In this document: positions 8,877 through 64,000 of the stretch, one piece after another
How positions within the stretch are numbered: the stretch's first letter is position 1
Layout: each line of letters starts with the position of its first letter
NCBI GenBank assembly: GCA_963769025.1
Contig: CAVYKI010000002.1
Location: forward strand, 32,001-96,000
DNA: 64,000 nt
Source of the DNA: an uncultured Verrucomicrobiae bacterium
GTDB lineage: Bacteria; Verrucomicrobiota; Verrucomicrobiia; Chthoniobacterales; Chthoniobacteraceae
Reading direction: 5' to 3'
Notes under the pieces: model-generated
Told to the model about the DNA's origin: nothing
What the model saw: only the letters and a program-made list of their open reading frames with translations
The model's database searches: none
Made by a program: the position numbers and the translations under genes

Positions 8877-9659
8877 CTACGGAGTGAGAAGCGCGCCCGC
8901 GTTTCTCCACAACATGTAGGCGGCGACGAGCCACATCCCGGCGGCGAAGACCTGCCGCAGTCGGGAAGCCGAAAGCCGCGTGCGAAGTCCCGAACCCGCG
9001 AGCATTCCGGCGAAGCTGCCGGCGACGAAGAGCGCGCTGAGCAGGGGCGGAAAGTGTGCCCCGTGCAGCAGGTGCGCGGTGACGCCGGAGATGGCGATGA
9101 GGAAAATGACGAGCAGCGACGTCGCAACCGCGCGGTGGATCGCCATGCCGGTGACGAAAACGAGCGCGGGCACAATGATGAAGCCGCCGCCCACGCCGAA
9201 AAGTCCCGAGAGCACGCCCGCCGACGCGCCCGCGCCAATCAGCCGCGCGTAGCAGCCGGGGTGCAGTTTGCCATCGCCGCGCGCGACACACGGGCCGGTG
9301 GCGAGCGCGTCGCCGCTGCGGCCCGCCCACATGCGCCAGCCCACGACGAGCATCAGCAGCGCAAATGCGGTGAGCACCAGCGCGGGCGCGAGGTGTCTCG
9401 CGAGCGCGGCACCGGCGGGTGCGAGCGCCATGCCTGCACCGGCGAAGACGAGGCCGGAGCGCCATTCGAGATCGCTCCGGCGCAGCGTGGCGCCAAAGCC
9501 GGCGGTGAGACCCACGGCGGCGAGACTCAGCCCGGCGGCGGTGCTGACCGGCTGGCCCAGGCCGTAGATGAGCAGCGGCACGGCAAAGATGGAGCCGCCA
9601 CCGCCGGTGAGTCCGAGCGAGACGCCGATGAGCAGTCCGAATAGCAGCGGCGCGAGCAT
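8877..9659 (-). CDS. Sulfite exporter TauE/SafE (TSUP) family
   Basis: GLTGGGGSIFAVP and GLFGVGGGFIIVP duplicated motifs in a hydrophobic 260-aa protein. Confidence 0.9.
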   Translation of the reverse strand: MLAPLLFGLLIGVSLGLTGGGGSIFAVPLLIYGLGQPVSTAAGLSLAAVGLTAGFGATLRRSDLEWRSGLVFAGAGMALAPAGAALARHLAPALVLTAFALLMLVVGWRMWAGRSGDALATGPCVARGDGKLHPGCYARLIGAGASAGVLSGLFGVGGGFIIVPALVFVTGMAIHRAVATSLLVIFLIAISGVTAHLLHGAHFPPLLSALFVAGSFAGMLAGSGLRTRLSASRLRQVFAAGMWLVAAYMLWRNAGALLTP

Positions 9660-9666
9660 TGCCGTC

Positions 9667-11083
9667 TCAGTGGGTCAGCGCGTGCTCATTCGCGATGCGT
9701 TCGCAGTCGGAGCAGGTGCCGTCCACATGCACGACGTCGAACGCTTCCGCGAGCAGGAATGACGCAGCGAGCGAGGCGCGCTTGCCCGAGCCGCAGTGGA
9801 TGTAGAGCCGATGCCCGCACGGCACTTCGCCGAGCCGCGCCTTGAGCCGCGTGTAGGCGATGTTCACCGCGCCCTCGAGATGGCCGACGGCAAACTCCGA
9901 GGCGTTGCGCACGTCGAGCACGAGGCCGCCGTCGAGCGCGGTGCGATTCCACTGCGCGAACTCGATGCGCTCCGTGCGCGCAGTGAATTGCCCTTCGCTC
10001 GCGAGGTCGTCCACCAGCGCCCAGCCGCCGATGCGGTCGAAGCCGATGCGGTAGAGCTGGCGCGCGGCGTCTTCCACCGCGCTCTCCTTCTCGACGACCA
10101 GGAACACGTCGTCCTCCGGCGCGAGATACGAGCCGGAGGAGGTCGAGAAAAACGGCCCCGGCATCGGGGCGTGGAGCGCGCCGGGCAAATGTCCGGCGGC
10201 AAAGGCGGCGCGATCGCGCGCGTGTGTCGAGCACGCGGCCGGTCCACGTGTGCGCGTCGCTCTTCCGCGGCTGCGGCACACCGCCCGTGATGGCAATGCC
10301 ATCGCGGTTCACCTGCTTCATCCGCGCGAAGTAGAGCGGCGGCTCGGGCTGGCCGGAGAGGATGAATTTCACAAACTCCTCCTCGCTGCCGGTGAGCGCG
10401 CGGCGCAGCGCGCCGTTGAACTTCCGCTCGTAGCCGAGCGTGGACGACGGCACCGCGCCGAGCGCCTTGCCGCAGGCCGAGCCGGCACCGTGCGCGGGCA
10501 GGATTTGCAGGTGATCGGAAAGCGCGGCGAATTTTCGCAGGCTCGCGTAGAGCTGTCGCGCGCCGGGCTCCTGCGTGCCGGAGACGCCCGCCGCCTGCTC
10601 CAGCAGATCGGGCCGGCCCACGTCTCCGACGAAGATGAAATCGCCCGTGAACGCCAGCATCGGCTCGTCCGCGCCGCCGCCGATGTCGGTGACGAGATAG
10701 CTCACATGCTCCGGCGTGTGCCCCGGCGTATGCACGGCGGTGAACTCGATCTTGCCGACGCGAAACTTGTCACCATCGCGGAGCACGACGCGCCCCGCGT
10801 GGCCTTTCGCCCACTCGCTCTGCCAATGCGGGCCGCCTTCGCCGGAGACGTAAATTTTCAGCGCCGGATCGGCCGCCGCGAGTTCCTGCGCGCCGCTGAC
10901 GAAGTCGGCGTGAATGTGTGTCTCGGCGACGGCGGTGATGCGCAGTCCTTCCTGCGCGGCGATGGCGCGGTAGCGGTCAATGTCGCGCTCGGGGTCCACG
11001 AGGATGGCCTCGCCGGTACGCTGGCAGCCGACGAGGTAGGCGTATTGCGCGAGGTGCGGATCGAAGATTTGGCGGAGCAGCAT
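9667..11083 (-). CDS. MBL-fold persulfide dioxygenase with two rhodanese domains (Blh/CstB-like); frameshift near 10220-10250
   Basis: MLLRQIFDPHLAQYAY, ETHIHADFVSG, HTPGHTPEH, GDVGRPDL, HGAGSACGK in one frame. GHLPGAL...LDVRNASEFAVGH...HCGSGKRA continues in another frame. Confidence 0.88.
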
Positions 11084-31531: not shown

Positions 31532-32955
31532 TCACACGAGAATTTTCCGCAACACGTCGCCCGCGACATCGGTGAGGCGGTAGCGGCGGCCGTTGTGGAA
31601 ATAGGTGAGCCTGTTTGTGATCGATGCCGAGCAGGTGCAGCATCGTGGCGTGGAGGTCGTGGACGGAGACGCGGTCCACGGCGGCGCGGTAGCCGATGTC
31701 GTCGAGTTCGCCGTAGCTCACGCCGCGCTTGATGCCCGCGCCGGTCATGAACATGCCGAAGCCGTTCGGATTGTGGTCGCGTCCGCCGTTGCCCTGCGAG
31801 ACGGGCATGCGCCCGAATTCGCCGCCCCAGATGACGAGCGTTTCGTTGATGAGTCCGCGTGCGCTTGAGGTCGGTGAGCAGCGCGTGAATCGGCTTGTCG
31901 GTCGCGCGGCAGTGGCCGCGGTGATTGCCGTTCAGGTCGCTGTGCGCGTCCCATTCGCCGTCGCTGTAGACCTGCACGAAGCGCACGCCGCGTTCGACGA
32001 GCCGGCGCGCCATGAGGCATTTCGAGCCGAAGGAGCGCGTCTCATTTTGGTCGATGCCATACATCTCGCGCGTGGCGGCGGACTCGGTGCTGAAGTCCAC
32101 GAGGTCGGTCGCCTCCGCCTGCATGCGATACGCGAGCTCGAAGCTCTGGATGCGCCCGAGCAATTCCGCCTCGCCGGGACGCTGCCTGCAGATGGCGCTC
32201 GTTGAGCTTCGCCATGCAGGTCGAGCTGCGCGCGCTGGTCGTCGCGCGTGACATCGCGGGGCCGCGTGAGATTGATGACCGGCGTGTCGCCCGGGCCGGA
32301 AGAGCGTGCCCTGATACGTGGTCGGCAGAAAGCCGGAGCTCCAGTTGAGGTTGCCGCCCTTCACGCCCTGATTGTTCCCGAGCACGACGTAGCCCGGCAG
32401 GTTGCTGTTCTCCGAGCCGAGGCCGTAGGTGATCCACGAGCCCGCGCTGGGAAATCCGGGCCGCGGGATGCCGGTGTTGATTTGATAGAGCGCGGGGACA
32501 TGGTCGTTCGACTCGCTGTAGAATGATTTCACGAACGCGAAGTCGTCCACGTGCTTCGCGACATTCGGGTAATGCTCGCAGACCCATGCGCCCGACTGGC
32601 CGTATTGCTTGAACGAAAACGGCGACTTCATCAGCGGCCCGGGATTGCCGTTGAACACATCAATCTCGATGCGCTGGCCGTCGCGCTTGGTCAGTTCCGG
32701 CTTCGGATCGAACATGTCCACCGCGCTCGGCGCGCCTTCCATGAACAGCCAGATGACCGACTTCGCCTTCGCCGGAAAATGCGCGACGCGCGGCGCCATC
32801 GGATTGAGCGCATCCGGCGCGGCGGCGAGCAGGCCGTTCTTCGCGAAGAGGTCGGCGAGCGCGAGCATGCCGAAACCCGCGCCGGCCTTTTTCAGAAAAT
32901 CGCGGCGAGTCGTGAAGGGCTCGAAGCGTCCGCAATGCTGCTGGGTCGGGTTCAT
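31532..32955 (-). CDS. DUF1501 protein (several frameshifts)
   Basis: TRRDFL Tat motif, [41 protein letters not shown]. Confidence 0.85.
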
Positions 32956-49321: not shown

Positions 49322-50524
49322 TCATTTCGATCCGTCGCCCGGCGGGCGGGTGAGTGATTCATCGAGCGGCGCGCCCGTGAGTGTCCGGAGGAATGCCTCC
49401 AGGTCCGCCTTTTCCTCCTCGGTGAAATGCCCCGTCTGGAGCGTTTCCTCGCGATGCCCGAAGACCGGCAGGCCCGGCAGGTCCGAGTAAAAATCGAGCA
49501 CATCGCGCAGCGTGGCGAAGCGGCCGTCGTGCATGTAGGGCGCGGTCTGTGCGACATTGCGCAGCGTGGGGGTCTTGAATTCGCCGAGATGGTTCGGCTT
49601 CACGACGAGGTAGCGGAGCTTGATGTTGGTCTCCGGGCTCCGGTCGTCGCTGAGCGTTCCGAGGCCGTTGAAGCGGTCATCGCGGACTTCGAGGATTCCT
49701 TCGAACCGTCCCTGATCGAATGCGGCAGGGAGACCGATGTTGTGGAATTCGCCGTCGGAAAAATTCGGCCCGGAATGGCACAGTACGCATCGACCGCGGC
49801 CGGTGAAGAGCGTGAGGCCACGTAGCGCCGCTTCGCTGATCCGCGCGGATGAGTCCGGCGCTTTCCCTTGCCGCAGTGCAGCGACGAACCGATCGAACAC
49901 CGAGCCCGTACTGATGATGCGGCGCTGATAGGCCTCGATCGCCTTGCCGAAGTTGGAGAGCAAACGATCCGCTGCGGGAGTGCGGGCTTTTGCATCCGCG
50001 GGCAGCGGGCCGAAGATCGCCTCGTATCCGGATTTCAACGCGCCGTCGCCGGAGAGGACTGCGAGAAGGTGTTCCGGCGAGGAGCCCATTTCCGCAGGGT
50101 GGAGCAGCGGATGCACGGCCTGCGCCCAGAGGGAATCCGCGCGCCCGTTCCAGAAAAACCAGCGCTGATGCGCGACGTTCCAGAGCGGCATCGCGTGGCG
50201 TTCGGTCACTCCAAGTCCGACGGAGAGCGGCTTCGGATCGGCGAAGCCGTGCGCGGGATTGTGGCAGGTGGCGCAGGAGATTTTGCCGTTCGCCGAGACG
50301 CGCGGGTCGAAGAAGAGGCGTTGGCCCAGCAGCGCCGCGGCGGGGTTGTCGGCGACGGCGTTGGTCGGGCTCGGAGGAGTGGCGGGCAGCGGTGAGAGCT
50401 TGAGGATCTCGCGCATCGCACCGGCGCTGAACTGCACGGGGACAACCTCCGGCTTCCGGTCGCATCCCGCACCGGAAGACACCGCCAGCCCGATGGCGAC
50501 GATTGCCAGGCTGCGCCCGGTCAT
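49322..50524 (-). CDS. Di-heme cytochrome c peroxidase/MauG-family lipoprotein
   Basis: LGQRLFFD, CATCH, FFWNGRAD, CVLCH, FKTPTLRNV...APYMHDG. Confidence 0.92.
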   Translation of the reverse strand: MTGRSLAIVAIGLAVSSGAGCDRKPEVVPVQFSAGAMREILKLSPLPATPPSPTNAVADNPAAALLGQRLFFDPRVSANGKISCATCHNPAHGFADPKPLSVGLGVTERHAMPLWNVAHQRWFFWNGRADSLWAQAVHPLLHPAEMGSSPEHLLAVLSGDGALKSGYEAIFGPLPADAKARTPAADRLLSNFGKAIEAYQRRIISTGSVFDRFVAALRQGKAPDSSARISEAALRGLTLFTGRGRCVLCHSGPNFSDGEFHNIGLPAAFDQGRFEGILEVRDDRFNGLGTLSDDRSPETNIKLRYLVVKPNHLGEFKTPTLRNVAQTAPYMHDGRFATLRDVLDFYSDLPGLPVFGHREETLQTGHFTEEEKADLEAFLRTLTGAPLDESLTRPPGDGSK

Positions 50525-50982
50525 TCGATCGAGACCGGAAAGAACGCCCGCTCCTTTGTGGTTCCCGCTGAAACCTCGACCATAATCGACCACTCGCCTG
50601 CCATGTGGAAGAGCATGCCGTTTGCGCGGTAGCGGTTTCCTCCCTCGTGGATGGTTTCCGGTTTGGTGTTCATCCCGTGGCCGTGGCTCGGCATGTCGGC
50701 GTCCACCGCGACGCTGTTCGGAGCGCCTGCACCGGCGCCCGCTTCGAGGACGACGCCGATCGAAAAATGTTTGTTCGTCGTGATGCCGCCGCCCTCGGGC
50801 TGGATCGTCACGGTGAAATTCCCGCCGTCAGTCTTGCGCTTGGCAGGCCAGATCGCGGGAGCGTTGGGAGCGCCCGGCGGTGGGAGTTGTGCCGTTTCGG
50901 AGGTTTTCTTGCAGCCTGCGCCAGTCGCTGCAATCAGGATGCTGAGGAAAGCCGGAAGGCAGGCGCGAAAGGTGGTTCTCAC
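50521..50982 (-). CDS. YtkA/FixH-like lipoprotein
   Basis: Lipobox GAGC, DADMPSHGHGM, FHMAGEW. Overlaps the peroxidase start by 4 nt. Confidence 0.8.
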   Translation of the reverse strand: MRTTFRACLPAFLSILIAATGAGCKKTSETAQLPPPGAPNAPAIWPAKRKTDGGNFTVTIQPEGGGITTNKHFSIGVVLEAGAGAGAPNSVAVDADMPSHGHGMNTKPETIHEGGNRYRANGMLFHMAGEWSIMVEVSAGTTKERAFFPVSIE

Positions 50983-56114: not shown

Positions 56115-57179
56115 ATGCACGAGTCTTCCCCAGACCGCCCCTGCCCGCCGTCCCCGAATCCCATCGAGCCGCCTCCGCGGAGCGCTGTGAACCGCCGCGA
56201 AGCGCTGCGCACCGCTTTCGTCGCAGCCGCCGGTGCAGCCGCGATCGGGACATCGCACGCCCAGCCAGTTTCCACGGGCAAGCCTGATGCGCGGCGCGGC
56301 GCGCTGAGACGCTACGACATGAAAAAGTCGATCAACCTCTGGGCGTTCCCGTATCCGGAGCGCATGACGCTCGAGGAATGCCTCCGGCTCGCGAAGGACG
56401 CGGGCTTTGACGGCATCGAGCTCAACTACGACCTCGACAACGATCTCTCGCCGAAATCCGGAACCGCCGAGTATCACGCGATTCGGCGGATGGCGGACAA
56501 GATCGGGATCGAGATCAGCGGCCTTTGTTCGTTCCTGTTCTGGCCGTATCCGCTCACGAGCAACGACGCCGCGAAGCGCGCGCGCGGCATCGAACTCGCC
56601 GGCAAGATCGCGCAGGCCGCCCACGATCTCGGTGTCGAGAATGTGCTCGTCGTCCCCGGAGCCGTGCACATCCCGTGGCGCACCGATCACGAGCCGGTCC
56701 CGAACGACGTGTGCGACCGGCGCGCCCGCGAAGCCGTTGCGCAGCTCGTGAAACAGGCCGCGAAACTGAAGGTGTGCCTGAACATCGAGAACATCTTCTT
56801 CAACGGCTATCTCATGACGCCGATGGAGATGAACGCGTTCGTGGATCACTTTGGCAGCGAGCACGTCCGCGTGCATTTCGACACGGGCAATATCTCGATG
56901 TTCCAGTTTCCGGATCACTGGGTGCCGATCCTCGGCAAGCGGACGAAGAACGTGCATCTCAAGGAATTCACGAAGAAGGGCACCGACTTCTCGCTGGAGA
57001 CTTTTCGTCCGCTGCTCGATGGCACCACCAACTGGCCGGCCGTCACCGAGGCGCTCGATCAGACCGGCTACCGCGGCTTTCTCACCTTCGAATATTTCCA
57101 TCCATACCCGCACTACCCCGAGGCGCTGATCTACCAGACCAGCGATTCGCTCGACCGCATCCTCGGGCGCAAGTCGTGA
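56115..57179 (+). CDS. Tat-signal sugar-phosphate isomerase/epimerase (AP-endonuclease-2 TIM barrel)
   Basis: NRREAL, AGFDGIEL, IENI, FDTGN, VHLKE, LTFE. Confidence 0.88.
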   Translation: MHESSPDRPCPPSPNPIEPPPRSAVNRREALRTAFVAAAGAAAIGTSHAQPVSTGKPDARRGALRRYDMKKSINLWAFPYPERMTLEECLRLAKDAGFDGIELNYDLDNDLSPKSGTAEYHAIRRMADKIGIEISGLCSFLFWPYPLTSNDAAKRARGIELAGKIAQAAHDLGVENVLVVPGAVHIPWRTDHEPVPNDVCDRRAREAVAQLVKQAAKLKVCLNIENIFFNGYLMTPMEMNAFVDHFGSEHVRVHFDTGNISMFQFPDHWVPILGKRTKNVHLKEFTKKGTDFSLETFRPLLDGTTNWPAVTEALDQTGYRGFLTFEYFHPYPHYPEALIYQTSDSLDRILGRKS

Positions 57180-57258
57180 GGCAGGAGCAGACGAGGCAGC
57201 ACGGGTCCGGTGAGCGGAACCTTGAAGTCAGCACGCGACGGCTTAGGTTTTCACAGAC

Positions 57259-57495
57259 ATGGCACCTCAAATCGTCATCGAATACTGCGCTGTTTGAAAT
57301 TATGAGCCGAAAGCCGTCAGTTTGGCGGAGCGACTCGGGCAGTTCAAAGAGCGGCTGGGCGGAATTAAACTGCTTCCGTCGAGCGGCGGCGTGTTCGAGA
57401 TCAGTGTCGGCGGAGAGAAAATCTACTCGAAACGCGAGACGGGAGAGTTCCCCGACTTCGACGCCATCGTCGCTGCGGTCAAAGCGAAGCTCTAG
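57259..57495 (+). CDS. Rdx-family (SelW/SelT/SelH-like) selenoprotein, U13 at TGA 57295-57297
   Basis: MAPQIVIEYCAVUNYEPKAVSLA...PSSGGVFEISVGGEKIYSKRETGEFPD shows the YCxxU and G-x-FE-I Rdx motifs. Lies directly upstream of selC. Absent from the ORF track. Confidence 0.92.
57306..57326 (+). promoter_or_regulatory. Putative bacterial SECIS
   Basis: GCC-GA-AAGC-CGTCA-GTTT-GGC; the loop starts at +18 after UGA. Confidence 0.5.
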
Positions 57496-57536
57496 CGCCG
57501 CGGAGTCGGCGGCAGGGGAGTCGGTCCATTTTCCAC

Positions 57537-57633
57537 GGAGAGTGAAGGGTGCCTGGTGGCCCTCGCGGTCTTCAAAACCGTTGTCGGTCCGTTCTGCGGG
57601 CCGAGGTGGGTTCGATTCCTACCCTCTCCGCCA
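57537..57633 (+). tRNA. selC: tRNA-Sec (anticodon UCA)
   Basis: GCGGT-CTTCAAA-ACCGT anticodon arm (TCA at 57572-57574), long D stem with TGGT loop, long variable arm, GTGGG-TTCGATT-CCTAC T arm, GCCA end. Lies 12 nt upstream of selA. Confidence 0.96.
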
Positions 57634-57645
57634 CTCGCCACGCGC

Positions 57646-59001
57646 ATGAGCGGAAACACAAAGCTCCGCGCCATCCCGTCGATCGAGAAGCTCGTGCAGG
57701 CGCTCGGCCCGCTCGATGTACCGCGGCCTCTGGCAGTCGCTGCCGCGCGGAGGGAAGTCGCGGCACTGCGCAAGGAAAAGGAGGTGCCGGATTTTGCAGA
57801 CGTGGTGCAGCGGCTGGCGGCGGCTGTGGAAAGTCTGCGCCGGTCGCGGATCCAGCCGGTGATCAATGGCACGGGCATCCTCCTTCACACGAATTTCGGC
57901 CGCGCGCCGCTCGGCCCGGCGGTGGTCGCGGCAATCTCGGCGGTCGCGGCTGACTACAACAATCTCGAATACGACACCGCCACGGGCGCGCGCGGCGATC
58001 GCGCGGCGTACCTGGAGCAATGCCTCGCGGCGCTCTGCGGCGCGGAGGCGGCGACAGTGGTAAACAACTGCGCGGCGGCGCTGGTGCTGGCGCTGCGGCA
58101 TTTCACGAAGAAGAAGCCCGAGGTGATCATCTCGCGCGGTGAATTGATCCAGATCGGCGGCGGCTTCCGCATCCCGGAAATCCTCGAGGCGAGCGGTGCG
58201 CGCTTGCGCGAGATTGGCACGACGAACAAAACGACGCTGGCGGACTACCAAAAGGCGATCGGCCCGGAGACCGGGATGATTTTGAAAGTCCACCGGAGCA
58301 ATTTTTTCATGGGCGGATTCGTAGAGGCGCCCGATTCCGACGGGATTGCCGCGCTGGCGAAGAAGCGGCGTGTTCCTTTCGTCGAGGATCTCGGCAGCGG
58401 CGCGATTGCCGCGACGGAGAAGCTGGCACCAATCGCGCACGAGGCGACCCCCTTGGAAGTGCTCAGGCACGGCGCGGATCTGGTGATGTTCAGCGGCGAC
58501 AAGCTGCTCGGCGGGCCGCAGGCGGGCATCCTTGCCGGTCGCGCGCGACATATCGCGGCGCTGAAACGCGAGCCATTCTATCGCGCGCTGCGCTGCGACA
58601 AGCTCATCCTCACGGCGCTGCAAACGACCGCGGAACTGTATCTCACCGGCGCTCACGACGCGATGCCGATGCTCGCGATGCTGCGCGTTTCCAATGACGA
58701 CCTTCGCGCGCGTGGCGAAAGACTCGTCGCGGCACTCGCAGGCCTGCCGCTCTCGGCGCGCGTCGGCGAAGGCATGGCGCAGGTCGGTGGCGGCACCCTG
58801 CCGCAGGCGGAGATTCCGTCCGTCACGCTCGATCTCGCACCTGCGAAGATGCCGCTCGATGAATTTGCCGCGCGCCTCCGCGCAGGCGCGCCGCCGGTCA
58901 TAGGCTACATCTCGGGACGGCGGCTGAAGCTCGACCTGCGCACGATTTTCCCGCGGCACGATCCGACGCTCGTCGAGGCCATCCGCAAGGCATCCGCGTG
59001 A
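57646..59001 (+). CDS. selA: L-seryl-tRNA(Sec) selenium transferase
   Basis: VINGTGILLHTNFGRAPL, VNNCAAA, SRGELIQIGGGFRIP, EIGTTNKT, EDLGSG, FSGDKLLGGPQAG. Confidence 0.97.
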   Translation: MSGNTKLRAIPSIEKLVQALGPLDVPRPLAVAAARREVAALRKEKEVPDFADVVQRLAAAVESLRRSRIQPVINGTGILLHTNFGRAPLGPAVVAAISAVAADYNNLEYDTATGARGDRAAYLEQCLAALCGAEAATVVNNCAAALVLALRHFTKKKPEVIISRGELIQIGGGFRIPEILEASGARLREIGTTNKTTLADYQKAIGPETGMILKVHRSNFFMGGFVEAPDSDGIAALAKKRRVPFVEDLGSGAIAATEKLAPIAHEATPLEVLRHGADLVMFSGDKLLGGPQAGILAGRARHIAALKREPFYRALRCDKLILTALQTTAELYLTGAHDAMPMLAMLRVSNDDLRARGERLVAALAGLPLSARVGEGMAQVGGGTLPQAEIPSVTLDLAPAKMPLDEFAARLRAGAPPVIGYISGRRLKLDLRTIFPRHDPTLVEAIRKASA

Positions 59002-60923
59002 TGGAGGTGCGGCACTTCATCGTCGCCACCGCGGGTCACGTCGATCACGGCAAGAGCGCGCTGGTCACGGCGCTCACCGGGGTGGATCCGGACCGGTTGC
59101 CGGAGGAAAAGGCGCGCGGCATCACGATCGAACTCGGCTTCGGACATCTTCGGCTTGGCGACTTCGAGATCGGGATTATTGACGTGCCGGGGCACGAGGA
59201 TTTCGTGAAGAACATGGTCGCGGGCATGGGCGCGGTGGATGCCGCTCTTTTTGTCGTGGCGGCTGACGATGGGTGGATGCCGCAGACGGAGGAACATCTG
59301 CACATCCTCGGCTACCAGGGCGTGCGGCACGCGGTCGTCGCGCTGACGAAGATCGATCTTTGCGCGGATGAGAAGACGGCCATCGCCGCCATCCGGGAAA
59401 GGCTGCGCGGCACGCCCTTCTCCACCGCGCCGATCGTGCCGACCTCCATCGTCACGGGGCGGGGGATTGACGAGTTAAAGGGCGCACTCGCGAACGTGCT
59501 TTCACACACGCCTCCGTCGCGCGACATCGGCAAGCCGCGCCTTTCCGTGGACCGGGCGTTCACGTTGCGCGGGATCGGCACCGTGGTGACGGGCACGCTG
59601 AGCGGCGGCGAACTGAAACGCGGACAGGCCGTCGTCATCCAGCCTGTGGGCCTGAAGGCGCGCATCCGCGGAATCCAGAGCCACAGCCGCGAAGTCGAGA
59701 CCGCCGGGCCGGGGACGCGCACTGCGCTCAACCTTTCCGACATCGCGCTCGCCGCGCATGGCCAGCAGGGCGTCGAGCGGGGCAATGTGATTACGCTCGA
59801 AGCGCTCGGTGCGCCGGTCGCGCGGATGGATGCGGTCCTCTCGCGTTCTGCTCGCTGCGAGACCGGCAAGGGCAAGCCTGCGCTGAAAAATGGCGCTCGC
59901 GTCCGCGTCCATCACGGGAGCGGCAATGTGGCGGCACGCGTCGCGTTGTTCCGCGTGCCGGCCGTGGCGCCGGGCGGGAATGTGCTTGCGCGGCTGAAGC
60001 TCGAGCAGCCGTGGTTTGTGTGCGAGGGCGATCGTTTCATCCTGCGCGACTGGTCGGAGACCGTGACGCTCGCGGGGGGGATCGTTCTGGAGACTGCTGC
60101 GCCGGTCCGCTTCCACGCGCCGCCGCACCAGCGATTGCTGGCGCAGCGCGCGGCGGCGCCGGCGGATGTGGAGGTGTTTGTCGCCACGCAGGTCGAGCGG
60201 GATGGAATGGTGCGTGCCGCTTCGCTCCTTGCGGACTCGATCTTCAGCGCGCGTGAAATCGCCGCCGCCGCGGCACGCCTCGTGGAAGGCGGGCGGGCGA
60301 TCCAAGCCGGGGAATTCATCGCGTACGGGGATTGGTGGAAGGCCGTGGTCAAGCGCGCCGCGGACGCGATCGACGCCTGCCATGCTGAGCATCCTGAGCA
60401 CGCGGGGCTGCCGGTGAACGAACTCCGCACATTGCTCAAACGCGAACTTCCGGAGTCCGGCACGTTCGATGCCTTCGTGCGCGATCTCTGCCGCGCCGGC
60501 TTTTCGCAGAGCGGCCCCACGATTGCCCGCGCGTCGCACCGCGCGTCGCTCCCGCCGCATCTCGAGTCGGCAGGCGCGCGCATCCGTGCCGCGCTCGCCG
60601 TCAAGCCATTCGACCCGCCGCCGCGCCGCGAACTGGCCACGGATTCGCTGTCGCAGCAGGCGTTCCGTTTTCTGCTGGAGAAAGGCGAGGTCATCGAGTT
60701 GCCCGGCGAGGTCATTCTCACGAGCGCGGGTTTTGCGCGGATCAAGGAAGTGATCGCACAGTTCATCCGGAAGAACGGCCCCGCGACGGTGAGCCAGTTG
60801 CGCCAGGAACTCGGGACCACGCGCCGCGTGATGATGCCCGTGCTCGAGCGTCTCGACCGTGAGGGTTTCACCGTGCGAGCAGGCGACCTGCGATCGCTGA
60901 AGGCTGCGAAACCGACGGCATAG
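58998..60923 (+). CDS. selB: Selenocysteine-specific elongation factor
   Basis: TAGHVDHGKS, EEKARGITIELGF, DVPGHEDF, MPQTEEH, and a C-terminal winged helix ELGTTRR..PVLERLDREGFTVRAGDLR. Confidence 0.96.
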   Translation: MMEVRHFIVATAGHVDHGKSALVTALTGVDPDRLPEEKARGITIELGFGHLRLGDFEIGIIDVPGHEDFVKNMVAGMGAVDAALFVVAADDGWMPQTEEHLHILGYQGVRHAVVALTKIDLCADEKTAIAAIRERLRGTPFSTAPIVPTSIVTGRGIDELKGALANVLSHTPPSRDIGKPRLSVDRAFTLRGIGTVVTGTLSGGELKRGQAVVIQPVGLKARIRGIQSHSREVETAGPGTRTALNLSDIALAAHGQQGVERGNVITLEALGAPVARMDAVLSRSARCETGKGKPALKNGARVRVHHGSGNVAARVALFRVPAVAPGGNVLARLKLEQPWFVCEGDRFILRDWSETVTLAGGIVLETAAPVRFHAPPHQRLLAQRAAAPADVEVFVATQVERDGMVRAASLLADSIFSAREIAAAAARLVEGGRAIQAGEFIAYGDWWKAVVKRAADAIDACHAEHPEHAGLPVNELRTLLKRELPESGTFDAFVRDLCRAGFSQSGPTIARASHRASLPPHLESAGARIRAALAVKPFDPPPRRELATDSLSQQAFRFLLEKGEVIELPGEVILTSAGFARIKEVIAQFIRKNGPATVSQLRQELGTTRRVMMPVLERLDREGFTVRAGDLRSLKAAKPTA

Positions 60924-60975
60924 TCGCGCCGTTCGCCGCCTTGACGGCAGCCGGCTTCTGGCGTTGCCTTGACTC

Positions 60976-61632
60976 ATGAAAGCGTTCCTCCCTCTCGCTC
61001 TCGCCGCGGTTTTTGTCGCCGCTGCTTTTCCCGCTTCTGCGCAGCAACGGCCGAGGAAGGGCGACCTTCGCATGCCGGACACCGTGCGCGTGGGCGACGC
61101 GGCACCGGACTTCAAACTGAAAACACTCGATGGTTCGCGTGAAGTGCAGCTCTCCAGCTTCCGCGGCAAGCGGCCGGTGGTCCTTGTCTTCGGGAGTTAC
61201 ACCTGACCCCCTTTCCGGAGTCAGGTTGGCTCCATCGAGCAGCTCTACGCGGACTACAAGGACAAGGCCGAGTTCTTCATGGTCTATATCAAGGAGGCTC
61301 ATCCCACCGACGGCAGAGTGTCGCCAGGCAATGCGCGCGGCGGGATCTCCATTCCCGATCCGAAGACGTATGCCGAGCGGGCCGATGTCGCGCACAAGGC
61401 ATGCACGGAACTGAAAATCACCCTCCCGTGTCTCGTGGACGGGATGAACGATGCCGCGAACAAGGCCTACGCCGCGTGGCCGGATCGGATCTACGTCGTG
61501 GATGCCACCGGGAAGATCGCGGTGAGAGGCGGGCCGGGGCCGTCCGGTTTTGCGCCTTCGATCACCGAGACGCGGGTGTGGCTCGGCAAGATGTTTGGGC
61601 CGAAAGGCGCGGCGTCTCCCGGTTCCCGCTGA
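60976..61632 (+). CDS. Secreted iodothyronine deiodinase-like (peroxiredoxin-fold) selenoprotein, U77 at TGA 61204-61206
   Basis: Signal peptide, GDAAPDF...RPVVLVFGSYT-TGA-PPFR...FFMVYIKEAHPTDG...LVDGMND...YAAWPDRIY. The ORFs 60976-61206 and 61279-61632 are in the same frame. Confidence 0.93.
61217..61233 (+). promoter_or_regulatory. Putative bacterial SECIS
   Basis: GGAGTC-AGGTT-GGCTCC, beginning 10 nt after UGA. Confidence 0.72.
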
Positions 61633-61649
61633 CGCACTTTCCGCGGCGG

Positions 61650-62714
61650 TCAGTCTTTGCCGGAATAGCGGACCGAGATCACCGAGGGGCCGCTGCGGAC
61701 GATCTTGCCGATAACCGCAGCGCAGGGAGTGAGATGTTTTTTCAAGAGCGCCAGCACGGCGGAGAAATTCTTCTGCGCGACGCAGAGAAGGAGGCCGCCG
61801 CTGGTCTGCGCATCGGTAAGCAGCGAACGGAAACGCTCCGGCGTGCGATCCCAATCGGTGATCGCGTTGGCCGTTTCTTCATTCTGCCTGCTGCCGCCGG
61901 GCACGCATCCTTCGGCGATGAGCGAAAAGATTTCCGCGCTGATCGCCGGGACGGATTCGGCGGTGATCTCCGCACTCACGCCGCTCGCGCGACACATCGA
62001 GGCGAGATGCCCGAGCAGGCCGAAGCCCGTCACATCCACCGCCGCGCGGACGAGTTCCTTTTCCGCAAGCACCGCGCCGCTGGAATTGAGCTGCGACATC
62101 AGCGTGATCACCTTTTTGCCCAGCGCTGCGGAAGCGATCTGCCGTTTGATTCCCGTCGTGGCGATGCCGGTGCCGAGCGGCTTTGTGAGCACGAGCAGAT
62201 CGCCTATGCGGGCGCGGGCATTTGTCAGCATCCGCCTGGGCGAAACGAGCCCGGTGACTGCGAGGCCATAGATCGGCTCGGGATTCCGGATCGTGTGGCC
62301 GCCGACGATCGTGCAGCCCGCCTCGCGTGCCTTCATTGCGCCTCCGCGCAGGATGGCGGCGATGGCATTCGGCGGGACGAGATCCGGCGGGATGCCCATG
62401 ATGTTCAGCGCGGTCAGCGGACGCCCGCCCATCGCATACACATCGGAGAGCGCATTGGCCGCCGCGATTTGCCCGTACTGCCGCGGGTCGTCCACGACGG
62501 GCGTAAAGAAGTCCACCGTCTGCACCAGCGCGATGTCGCGGGTGAGACGCCAGACGCCTGCATCATCGGCCGTGGAGGAGCCGACGAGCAGCCTGGGATC
62601 GTCGATGCGTGGAAGCTGGCGCAAGACTTGCGCCAGGGCCTGTTGGCTCAGCTTGGAAGCTCAACCGGCACAGGACGACAACTCGGTCAGACGGAGAATT
62701 GGTTTGCGGGACAA
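61650..62714 (-). CDS. selD: Selenide, water dikinase (selenophosphate synthetase), Sec form: U18 at TGA 62663-62661
   Basis: TTG start, MSRKPILRLTELSSCAGUASKL, DDAGV, VQTVDFF, AANALSDVYAMGG, GGHT, DVTGFGLLGH, DAQTSGGLL. Confidence 0.96.
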
Positions 62715-62715
62715 A

Positions 62716-62731
62716 TGGATCACCTCCTTTC
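62716..62731 (-). promoter_or_regulatory. Extended Shine-Dalgarno of selD
   Basis: Minus strand GAAAGGAGGTGATCCA-T-TTG is complementary to the conserved 16S rRNA 3' tail (TGGATCACCTCCTTTC). Confidence 0.8.
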
Positions 62732-62830
62732 GATTTCCAAAAGACCGCTGGTCCGCCGAAAGCCAAGGAGAAACCTCGGCCCGGAGAATTCCCGTTTGAC
62801 GGCCCCGTGGGACGAATCGACCGTGGAGCC

Positions 62831-64000
62831 ATGAAAGCAGCCATCGCCCTCACGTTGTTCGCCGCTCTCGCATGGACGCACGCCAACGGCGCGACGCTGA
62901 ACGAGGAATTGTCCGGTTTTTCCAAGCGCTTCGAAGCCGCCCAGCCGTCCGAAAGCCAGCAGGCGATCTGGAAGCTCGACTGGGAGGATCACCTTTCCAC
63001 CGCCCTCGCGCGCGCGAAAACCGAGCGCCGGCCGATCCTTTTCATCCACGTCACCAACATCTCCGGCCCGTCCTACTTCGGTGCCGGGCATTGTTGAGCA
63101 AATGCCGACCACGTGAGAGGCAGTTGCCTCTCCCACAGTGACGCGATCGAGGCACTCAGAGGATTCATTGTCACGTCTTGGAGCGGTCACACCGACATGC
63201 GCGATCCGAAGGACATGCCGCCTGAAGTTGCGCGTGTGCATGCCACGGCCGCGGGCACGCGTGTGAAAGGCAACATCAAGTGCTTCATCCTCGCACCCGA
63301 CGGCGAGGTCGAGGCGGTGTTCAATGCGTTCCCAAACAACGATGTCACCTCCTTCGGCTTCGACGCGGACGAAGCCGGTCGCTACTTTGCGAAGAGCATC
63401 CGGCATTTCTCGAGCGGACTGAAAATCCCCGATCCCGCGAAGAAGGATTCGCGACTTGCGCTGCCGAAGACCCTCCAGGACGGCACGCCGGCAGACGCGC
63501 GGCTCGTGCTTCATGTTTCGCCAAAATCGCAGCCGTCCCAATACCGCGCCGCCGTGGCCGAACCGTTGCGGCTCGGAATCGAGGCCCGTTCCGCGCTGAG
63601 TGGAGGGGGGAAGCCGGTGAAGGAATCGGGCACGGTCGCGGCCAGTTCGCTCGCGACCGTGCTGAAGCTTTTCTACCCGCCGGCGATCATGCAGGAGACC
63701 GGCGAGATCAGCGCGGTCGCAGGGACGCTCAATCTGAGTCCCATCGGCGCCAACAGCGACGGCGCTTGGGCAAAACTCACCGGTTCCGCGACGCTCACGC
63801 TGGACGATGGTGCGGACACGAAGTTCCCCGTGGAAGTGGACGCGCTGGTGCTCACGGATCCGGCCAGCGGCGCGTTCAAATCCGTGCGCGGCATTCTCAA
63901 TGGCGTTTGTCCGAAAGTGGCTGGCAAAAGCGGACCCGGACGGACGCATCAACTGGAAATGACCGGCACTTTCACGAGCCTCGACGCGGATTCGAAGTGA
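62831..64000 (+). CDS. Secreted SelN-like thioredoxin-fold selenoprotein (U89 at TGA 63095-63097)
   Basis: Signal peptide, IWKLDW...ALARAKTERRPILF...GHC-TGA-ANADHVRGSCLSHSDAIEALRGFIVTSWS...CFILAPDG. Single frame from 62831 to the stop at 64000. Divergent from selD. Confidence 0.85.
63098..63127 (+). promoter_or_regulatory. Putative bacterial SECIS
   Basis: GCAA-A-TGCC...(CGTGA)...GGCA-G-TTGC hairpin directly after UGA. Confidence 0.5.

Follow-up and report, generated by a model that had tools for sequence, protein, structure and literature searches.

The window analysed here is a 64,000-nucleotide stretch of the genome of an uncultured Verrucomicrobiae bacterium of the Chthoniobacteraceae (assembly GCA_963769025.1, contig CAVYKI010000002.1, forward-strand positions 32,001 to 96,000), and our subject is a gene at its far end that contains an in-frame TGA codon. 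In a listing of table-11 open reading frames (ORFs), this gene appears as two ORFs (62609-63097 and 63113-64000) that lie in the same frame with an offset of 504 nt. The initial annotation of this DNA had read the two ORFs as one frame joined by TGT-TGA, and had predicted a readthrough product of 389 amino acids resembling the catalytic region of eukaryotic selenoprotein N (SelN). Both ORFs, their offset, the two codons and all of the residues quoted in that annotation are present in the sequence: TGT and TGA form codons 88 and 89, and translation with TGA read as selenocysteine (Sec, U) gives 389 residues with U89. The gene start is best placed at ATG 62831, not at the GTG 62609 that opens the longest ORF, because homologous N-terminal pieces of 88 residues open at the same methionine and signal peptide. 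The product represents a new family of selenoproteins, found in Verrucomicrobiota and Planctomycetota, whose members combine a thioredoxin fold with a second domain and apparently occur only with Sec. Features of the gene and of the surrounding sel cluster are collected in the table.

Table. Positions of the selenoprotein gene, its parts and the sel cluster genes in the window
Feature	Position	Strand	Basis or remark
Complete selenoprotein gene	62831..64000	+	389 codons; the TGA stop (63998-64000) is the window's final three bases
Signal-peptide-like leader, residues 1 to ~20	62831..62890	+	MKAAIALTLFAALAWTHANG; 10-mer Kyte-Doolittle maximum 2.52
Thioredoxin-fold domain, residues ~40-195	62948..63415	+	AlphaFold2 model, Foldseek and weak Thioredoxin_7 matches
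Cys88, TGT, candidate resolving thiol	63092..63094	+	directly precedes Sec
U89, in-frame TGA read as selenocysteine	63095..63097	+	TGA at the same column in 6/6 DNA sequences
SECIS-like hairpin	63113..63133	+	stem 63115-63121/63126-63132; loop AGUU 63122-63125; closing pair G63113-C63133; U63114 bulged
Beta-rich C-terminal domain, residues ~205-389 (~185 residues)	63443..63997	+	model; conserved columns
selD, itself Sec-containing (SCAGUASK)	61650..62714	-	TGA 62661-62663; NCBIfam TIGR00476 1.3e-112
Exported deiodinase-like selenoprotein gene, split, between selB and selD	60976-61635	+	GSYTUPPF, U77, TGA 61204-61206
selB	58998-60923	+	Pfam SelB domains
selA	ORF to 59001	+	Pfam SelA 1.7e-115
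tRNA-Sec	57537-57633	+	ARAGORN; Rfam RF01852 63.7 bits

A scan of GTDB genomes returned five related loci (L001-L005), two from Verrucomicrobiota (one a Chthoniobacteraceae metagenome-assembled genome), two from Gemmataceae and one from Planctomycetales. These loci encode colinear full-length homologues of the window protein with identities of 31-78%, and their shared motif around the Sec codon is S/T/A-G-H-[C/T]-U-A-[N/T]-[A/V]-D-[H/L]-V-R-G. Coding conservation was evident on both the N- and the C-terminal sides of the TGA, in the related loci and in an alignment of 121 rows. The initial annotation had proposed that genomes of the Planctomycetes-Verrucomicrobia-Chlamydiae (PVC) group be examined for a conserved TGA or Cys codon at this column; an in-frame TGA is present there in five of five related loci.

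Searches of protein collections returned the family as pieces. Twelve relatives were detected with a word-indexed search, all of them C-terminal pieces of 262-300 residues that cover 66-76% of the query. A profile of six full-length sequences, searched against 1.84 billion representatives, gave 210 matches at E≤1e-3, including 154 at E≤1e-10; among the best 150 of these 210, the N-terminal pieces stop at profile position 85 and the C-terminal pieces begin at position 90 or later. The ends of 44 N-terminal pieces read GHC (39 pieces), GHT (three), GQC (one) and GHG (one). In the 121-row alignment, all 35 N-terminal pieces end at residue 88 and 79 of the 80 C-terminal pieces begin at or after residue 92, the first residue of the remaining one having been placed by MAFFT upstream of the query start. 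The Sec column is spanned by none of the 182 retrieved family proteins, all of which were matched by a hidden Markov model from six full-length proteins. A full-length Cys form was also sought among proteins of 31-685 residues by an indexed search with the deep alignment, which produced 35 matches, all fragments with a coverage of at most 76%. Longer or fused forms (686-2000 residues) yielded no match at E≤0.01, a result that the search tool itself treats as weak evidence. Protein collections with 1.84 and 5.8 billion entries yielded no cysteine form of the family. Because there was neither a Cys form nor a protein spanning the Sec column, the family appears to be Sec-only as far as the searched collections show.

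The hairpin that the initial annotation had placed 3' of the UGA is present as GAGAGGC-AGUU-GCCUCUC at 63115-63132 and resembles a bacterial selenocysteine insertion sequence (SECIS). This 7-bp hairpin begins 18 nt past the TGA, a position that is kept in all six DNA sequences. All three verrucomicrobial genes have the same hairpin sequence, while the other loci have GCGGGGG-AGUU-CCCUCGC (L003), GCGAGGG-AGUU-CUCUCGC (L005) and GAGAGG-CUACAC-CCUCUC (L004). Standard pairs occupy 97.9% of the 48 pair cells, as compared to 50-69% after displacement of the 3' partner by one to three columns. Two pairs are compensatory (AU exchanged with CG, and CG with GC), and the observed covariation score was reached by 7 of 500 shuffles. 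Comparison of the three verrucomicrobial genes showed identical codons at 8/8 hairpin positions versus 106/244 identical-residue columns elsewhere, and this suppression of synonymous change suggests that the RNA itself is constrained. The apical loop of the E. coli fdhF SECIS has a characteristic G-U; in the window gene the loop reads AGUU, and the loop of a hairpin in the selD gene of the window likewise contains GU. The genes selA, selB, selC (tRNA-Sec) and selD are all located within the window. The conserved in-frame TGA, the covarying hairpin and these sel genes support the view, put forward in the initial annotation, that the gene encodes a genuine selenoprotein.

Export of the product, another element of the initial annotation, is supported by the hydrophobic leader of the window protein, which may be cleaved near THA/NG. 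Leaders were called with a Kyte-Doolittle (KD) heuristic, not with a signal-peptide predictor, and by this measure (KD≥1.8) a hydrophobic leader is present in 62 of 69 family N-termini (six full-length proteins and 63 N-terminal pieces). The other seven comprise two without a leader, two that are not hydrophobic and whose starts were probably miscalled, and three just below the threshold.

Structural models were generated with AlphaFold2 from the six sequences (mean predicted local distance difference test score, pLDDT, 77.2) and from the 121-row alignment (pLDDT 92.0, predicted template modelling score 0.89). The modelled elements are beta1 (69-75), alpha1 (90-99), beta2 (113-119), alpha2 (131-140), beta3 (149-154), beta4 (160-165) and alpha3 (179-193). 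In the model, U89 lies immediately before alpha1, which is the position of the attacking Cys in CxxC proteins, and a loop of about 14 residues separates beta1 from Sec. Foldseek searches of the PDB with both models matched DsbH (2ju5, 6.2e-4), the Thioredox_DsbH protein 7tkv, the gamma domain of DsbD (1vrs/1uc7), ERp19 (1sen) and AGR2 (9i3u), with a Foldseek probability of 1.00 for 2ju5, 7tkv, 1vrs, 1uc7 and 1sen. For single-domain targets, E-values ranged from 6e-4 to 4e-3 and target template modelling scores from 0.58 to 0.64. Weak Thioredoxin_7 matches occur in 18 of the 121 members and Thioredox_DsbH matches in three, with other Pfam families matching no more than one member each. The model and its Foldseek neighbours thus support the proposal that the protein has a thioredoxin fold in which Sec, directly preceded by Cys, occupies the active-site position. 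For the C-terminal domain, there was no Pfam match and no confident structural match (Foldseek probabilities of 0.08-0.25 only).

Conserved residues are distributed over both domains. In the thioredoxin-fold domain, they include P39, D50, W51, A58, E65, R67, P68, G158 and F164, and the C-terminal domain has conserved L211-P212, R224, E244, Y282-P283-P284, G298, G318 and R353-G354. The same domain has conserved N76 (83%), G86, H87 (98%, 40/41), R96 and G97 (both 96%), L100 (98%), W117 (86%) and N148 (90%, at the cis-Pro position), with conservation of 96-100% for the active-site residues G86, H87, R96, G97 and L100. Cys88 (90%) is the sole cysteine among columns conserved at 75% or more; C99, C151 and C360 of the window protein occur in the verrucomicrobial branch only.

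Several metagenomic members depart from the two-domain layout. Two N-terminal pieces, P0139 and P0141, contain sigma-70 region 2 and region 4 (extracytoplasmic function type) followed by a hydrophobic segment and then the module, with the same ORF still ending in GHC ahead of the TGA; their layout suggests sigma factors tethered to the membrane that bear a selenoprotein domain in the periplasm. In P0092 (350 aa), the C-terminal piece is followed in the same frame by another N-side-like module (...RKPILLWIFIDRPADDARC), which again stops directly after a Cys; this may be a second, tandem Cys-Sec selenoprotein whose loop is shorter. A third arrangement is that of P0083 (221 aa), which has a leader, an N-terminal helix and the C-terminal domain and is devoid of the thioredoxin-fold domain; the C-terminal domain can therefore occur without the Sec module.

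The family was compared with known systems. With DsbH, 7tkv (Bab1_2064), DsbD-gamma, ERp19 and AGR2 it shares the fold, the order of elements and a redox residue at the N-terminus of alpha1. Proteins of the Thioredoxin_7/DsbH type also have the W...A...A.xExRP lead-in followed by beta1 and an exoplasmic location (periplasm or lumen of the endoplasmic reticulum, ER). The window family differs from them in having Sec for Cys within C-U-A-x-A rather than CxxC or CxxS, a loop of about 14 residues between beta1 and the active site, Asn in place of the cis-Pro, an extra C-terminal domain of 185 residues and sequence matches that fall under the Pfam cut-offs. A vicinal Cys-Sec pair is likewise found in thioredoxin reductase, where it can form a selenenylsulfide. 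The pair of the window protein is, however, internal and at the active site of a thioredoxin fold, and there is neither a flexible flavoenzyme tail nor an FAD/NAD domain; the thioredoxin reductase motif, GCUG, is cited in the accessible text of PMC12839072.

Thioredoxin-fold selenoproteins as such are already known. Those catalogued from bacteria in Table 1 of the 2026 review PMC13188914 include Trx7/PDZ NF041199, SaoT, VPGUxxT, HUIPC, the thiol:disulfide interchange protein, DsbA-like and DsbG-like proteins, which resemble the window family in their fold, in being exported in many cases and in having Sec in a redox motif. They differ in their motifs (UxxC, CxxU or others) and in having their own NCBIfam or Pfam models, as far as that table describes them. 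The entries with a CU motif in the same table are CopZ form 2, SaoL, HgcA, SaoC, MbdU and KCU-star, none of which is named thioredoxin-like. None of the 119 families of Table 1 fits by the motif or domain tabulated there, and scans against family models covered the entries with NCBIfam or Pfam models. The window protein itself gave only noise, with no Pfam-A or NCBIfam 20.0 family at E≤1. These results place the protein outside the bacterial selenoprotein families modelled in Pfam-A or NCBIfam 20.0 or listed in that table, in line with the initial annotation. A term search of the available text of PMC13188914 found neither Verrucomicrobia nor Planctomycetes, and one of the available text of the BSepDB paper (PMC13326102) found none of SelN, SelenoN, Verrucomicrobi- and Planctomycet-; Table S9 of PMC4807772 contains no obvious equivalent of the family. 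When the C-terminal ORF alone was searched in the ESM Atlas, it matched unnamed clusters (54, 120 and 739 members), largely of Planctomycetota, with scores of 0.95-0.96, and no named family above 0.84. The source names of the homologues are all 'hypothetical protein', and clusters of 10 diverse members carry only 'hypothetical protein' and 'Planctomycetota bacterium'.

The selenoprotein gene is divergent from selD, as first annotated. The longest table-11 ORF of selD lacks the N-terminus, for which TTG 62714 is the probable start, and the GU-containing loop noted above belongs to a 9-bp hairpin 3' of the selD TGA. The longest selA ORF opens at GTG 57556, inside the tRNA-Sec gene, and because of this overlap ATG 57646 is the more likely selA start, giving a selC-selA-selB unit. 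The deiodinase-like protein matches Pfam T4_deiodinase (1.7e-34), the AhpC-TSA and Redoxin Pfam models, and NCBIfam deiodinase_rel with 208.7 bits, under the cut-off of 250. Genome-wide reassignment of TGA was considered and rejected because TGA is also the ordinary stop of the window gene, selD and the deiodinase-like gene. A gene for a di-haem cytochrome c peroxidase (CCP_MauG 2.6e-44), with an adjoining YtkA-like gene, occupies 49325-50593 on the minus strand, some 7 kb upstream of the sel cluster. At L005, the gene downstream of the selenoprotein gene (9013-10899, plus strand) overlaps its end by 20 nt and encodes a CotH kinase domain with EF-hands; this neighbour, seen at one of five loci, is probably a coincidence and is mentioned here because SelN also has an EF-hand.

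We consider that the gene probably encodes one exported two-domain selenoprotein of 389 residues with UGA89 read as Sec, most likely a periplasmic selenol oxidoreductase. What was observed comprises the single frame, the signals for Sec decoding, the leader, the fold, where Sec lies in it and the lack of a Cys form; to these, a redox cycle, a role for Cys88, a substrate and a reductant can be added by analogy from the position of Sec in the fold and the known chemistry of Cys-Sec pairs. UGA89 would be decoded by the cell's own SelA, SelB, SelC and SelD with the aid of the hairpin. The selenolate of U89 would then attack an oxidized substrate (disulfide, sulfenic acid or peroxide) and Cys88 may resolve the intermediate, forming a vicinal selenenylsulfide comparable to that of the GCUG end of thioredoxin reductase. 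An external reductant would regenerate the enzyme, and the C-terminal domain may confer specificity by holding the substrate or a partner.

A number of findings weigh against this interpretation. Every Thioredoxin_7 match is under the gathering score (best E 0.012), and the sole PDB sequence match of the family profile is a non-significant one to the Thermus thioredoxin 2lst (E 0.95), whose alignment puts the Sec column on the first Cys of CPYC but is weak on its own. The residue at U+3 is not Cys, the window motif being C88-U89-A-N-A, and the cis-Pro position is occupied by Asn148 in 76 of 84 sequences. The adjacent C-U motif of the initial annotation holds for the window protein and for 37 of 41 sequences but is not universal, as position 88 is Thr in three and Gly in one; because of these four members, a selenenylsulfide cannot be the mechanism throughout the family. 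The folding energies of the hairpins are ordinary (z -2.2 to +0.3) and an Rfam search at E≤1 over 57000-64000 identified only the tRNA-Sec and no SECIS family, so the case for the hairpin rests on its position and covariation. Finally, Pfam analysis of 30 flanking ORFs of L001-L005 revealed no recurring gene partner and no sel gene, and these five neighbourhoods point to no reductant or pathway. Adjacency to selD, which the initial annotation had noted, is thus a property of the window genome that does not extend to the scanned neighbours of the other loci.

A further question is whether SelN has a specific bacterial relative in the thioredoxin-fold domain, which would then be nearer to SelN than other Thioredoxin_7 types are and would share its exoplasmic C-U chemistry; we regard this as possible but unlikely. 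According to the accessible text of PMC12839072, SelN is an ER membrane glycoprotein of type II topology that has an EF-hand and, on the lumenal side, an SCUG motif within a thioredoxin-like region. On this description, the two have in common an exoplasmic location, a thioredoxin-like region and a Cys-Sec pair, being Sec proteins of an oxidizing exoplasmic compartment in which Cys directly precedes Sec (PMC12839072 for SelN), and Sec is apparently obligatory in the bacterial family. The high conservation of R96 (U+7), L100 (U+11) and W117 (U+28) would be a further resemblance, if the SelN residues are as given in the initial annotation. The UAS domain of UBXD7 (2dlx) was a Foldseek match of the first model at rank 48 (E 0.06) but not among the listed matches of the second, and the nearer solved neighbours are DsbH, DsbD-gamma, ERp19 and AGR2. 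No entry described as SelN was present among the approximately 50 Foldseek PDB matches listed for the two models. The residues flanking the pair also differ, being H-C-U-A in the bacterial family and S-C-U-G in SelN, such that of the SCUG motif only the C-U pair is shared by a family whose motif is G-H-[C/T/G]-U-A. An EF-hand was not found in Pfam scans of the window protein and family members, and the family has a short, signal-peptide-like and seemingly cleavable leader instead of a type II anchor, a C-terminal domain of its own and an in-frame bacterial SECIS. The loop of about 14 residues between beta1 and Sec also counts against the relationship.

Some of the resemblances are, moreover, generic. 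Three of them are general Thioredoxin_7 features that all appear in the 2lst alignment, namely the [RK]-A-[KQ]-x-E-x-[RK]-P lead-in, Leu at U+11 and the distance to beta2; as 2lst has both this Leu and the beta2 spacing, these two do not discriminate SelN. In the family member P0150, the weak Thioredoxin_7 match comes from the lead-in before beta1. A D-x-x-G turn is common in thioredoxin-like folds. If the SelN residues given in the initial annotation are correct, the resemblances that would remain specific to SelN are the C-U pair, Arg at U+7 and Trp-Ser at U+28/U+29. That the bacterial family is a counterpart, and possibly the source, of the SelN catalytic domain, in which case both would be Sec-obligate exoplasmic redox modules of the Thioredoxin_7 type with a vicinal Cys-Sec centre, is a proposal that we hold to be doubtful. 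Literature searches yielded no description of a bacterial SelN relative or of the window family.

Instead of a turnover catalyst, the protein could be a periplasmic sensor or chaperone in which His87-Cys88-Sec89 forms a site for metals, metalloids or redox signals. The near-invariant His87, two residues before Sec, would fit such a role, as would the membrane-tethered signalling layout of two independent representatives with sigma-70 domains and a hydrophobic segment (P0139 and P0141) and the lack of a cis-Pro, a CxxC motif and a nearby reductant gene. Most members, that of the window included, are nevertheless simple secreted proteins that lack a signalling domain, every fold neighbour is a thiol-disulfide oxidoreductase and no metal-handling genes recur in the neighbourhoods, which makes this alternative improbable to us.

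Equally improbable, in our estimation, is a periplasmic selenol peroxidase of the glutathione peroxidase (GPx) type, in which Sec alone would pass through a selenenic acid, aided by Asn76, Trp117 and Asn148, and external thiols would act as the reductant. Such an enzyme would account for the members in which residue 88 is Thr or Gly, and the model topology suggests that Asn148, at the cis-Pro loop, and Trp117, at the end of beta2, are near the active site, inviting comparison with the Sec/Gln/Trp/Asn tetrad of GPx. The family has, however, no GPx or peroxiredoxin Pfam match (GSHPx, AhpC-TSA or Redoxin), and the prevalence of Cys88 favours a redox centre of two residues.

It is highly improbable that the TGA is a true stop, dividing two genes (one for a secreted peptide of 88 residues, the other for a protein of 295) or marking a pseudogene: two genes are called by every automatic annotation and the hairpin energy by itself is not exceptional, but the TGA would cut a thioredoxin fold (beta1 before, alpha1 after) that is modelled as one domain with a pLDDT of 92, all six loci conserve residues 90-94, which follow the TGA and precede the first start codon after it, the downstream starts chosen by gene callers are scattered from positions 92 to 153, the C-terminal piece has no leader of its own, and the arrangement is kept across two phyla in at least 182 sequences.

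Our favoured reading is therefore of an exported selenol oxidoreductase whose family is distinguished by the placement of Sec beside Cys rather than in UxxC or CxxU, and by a C-terminal domain without a confident structural match. That no Cys version was found in either protein collection suggests that selenium is indispensable to this family. Because annotation always splits the gene into two 'hypothetical proteins', the family is invisible in databases and missing from selenoproteome counts, and a family model would fix hundreds of gene calls. If the relationship to SelN were true, PVC bacteria would provide a tractable model for the still undefined chemistry of SelN, and the members fused to sigma factors would show the module as a redox sensor, echoing the sensor role of SelN. 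A human disease protein with poorly defined substrate chemistry would then become approachable through bacteria.

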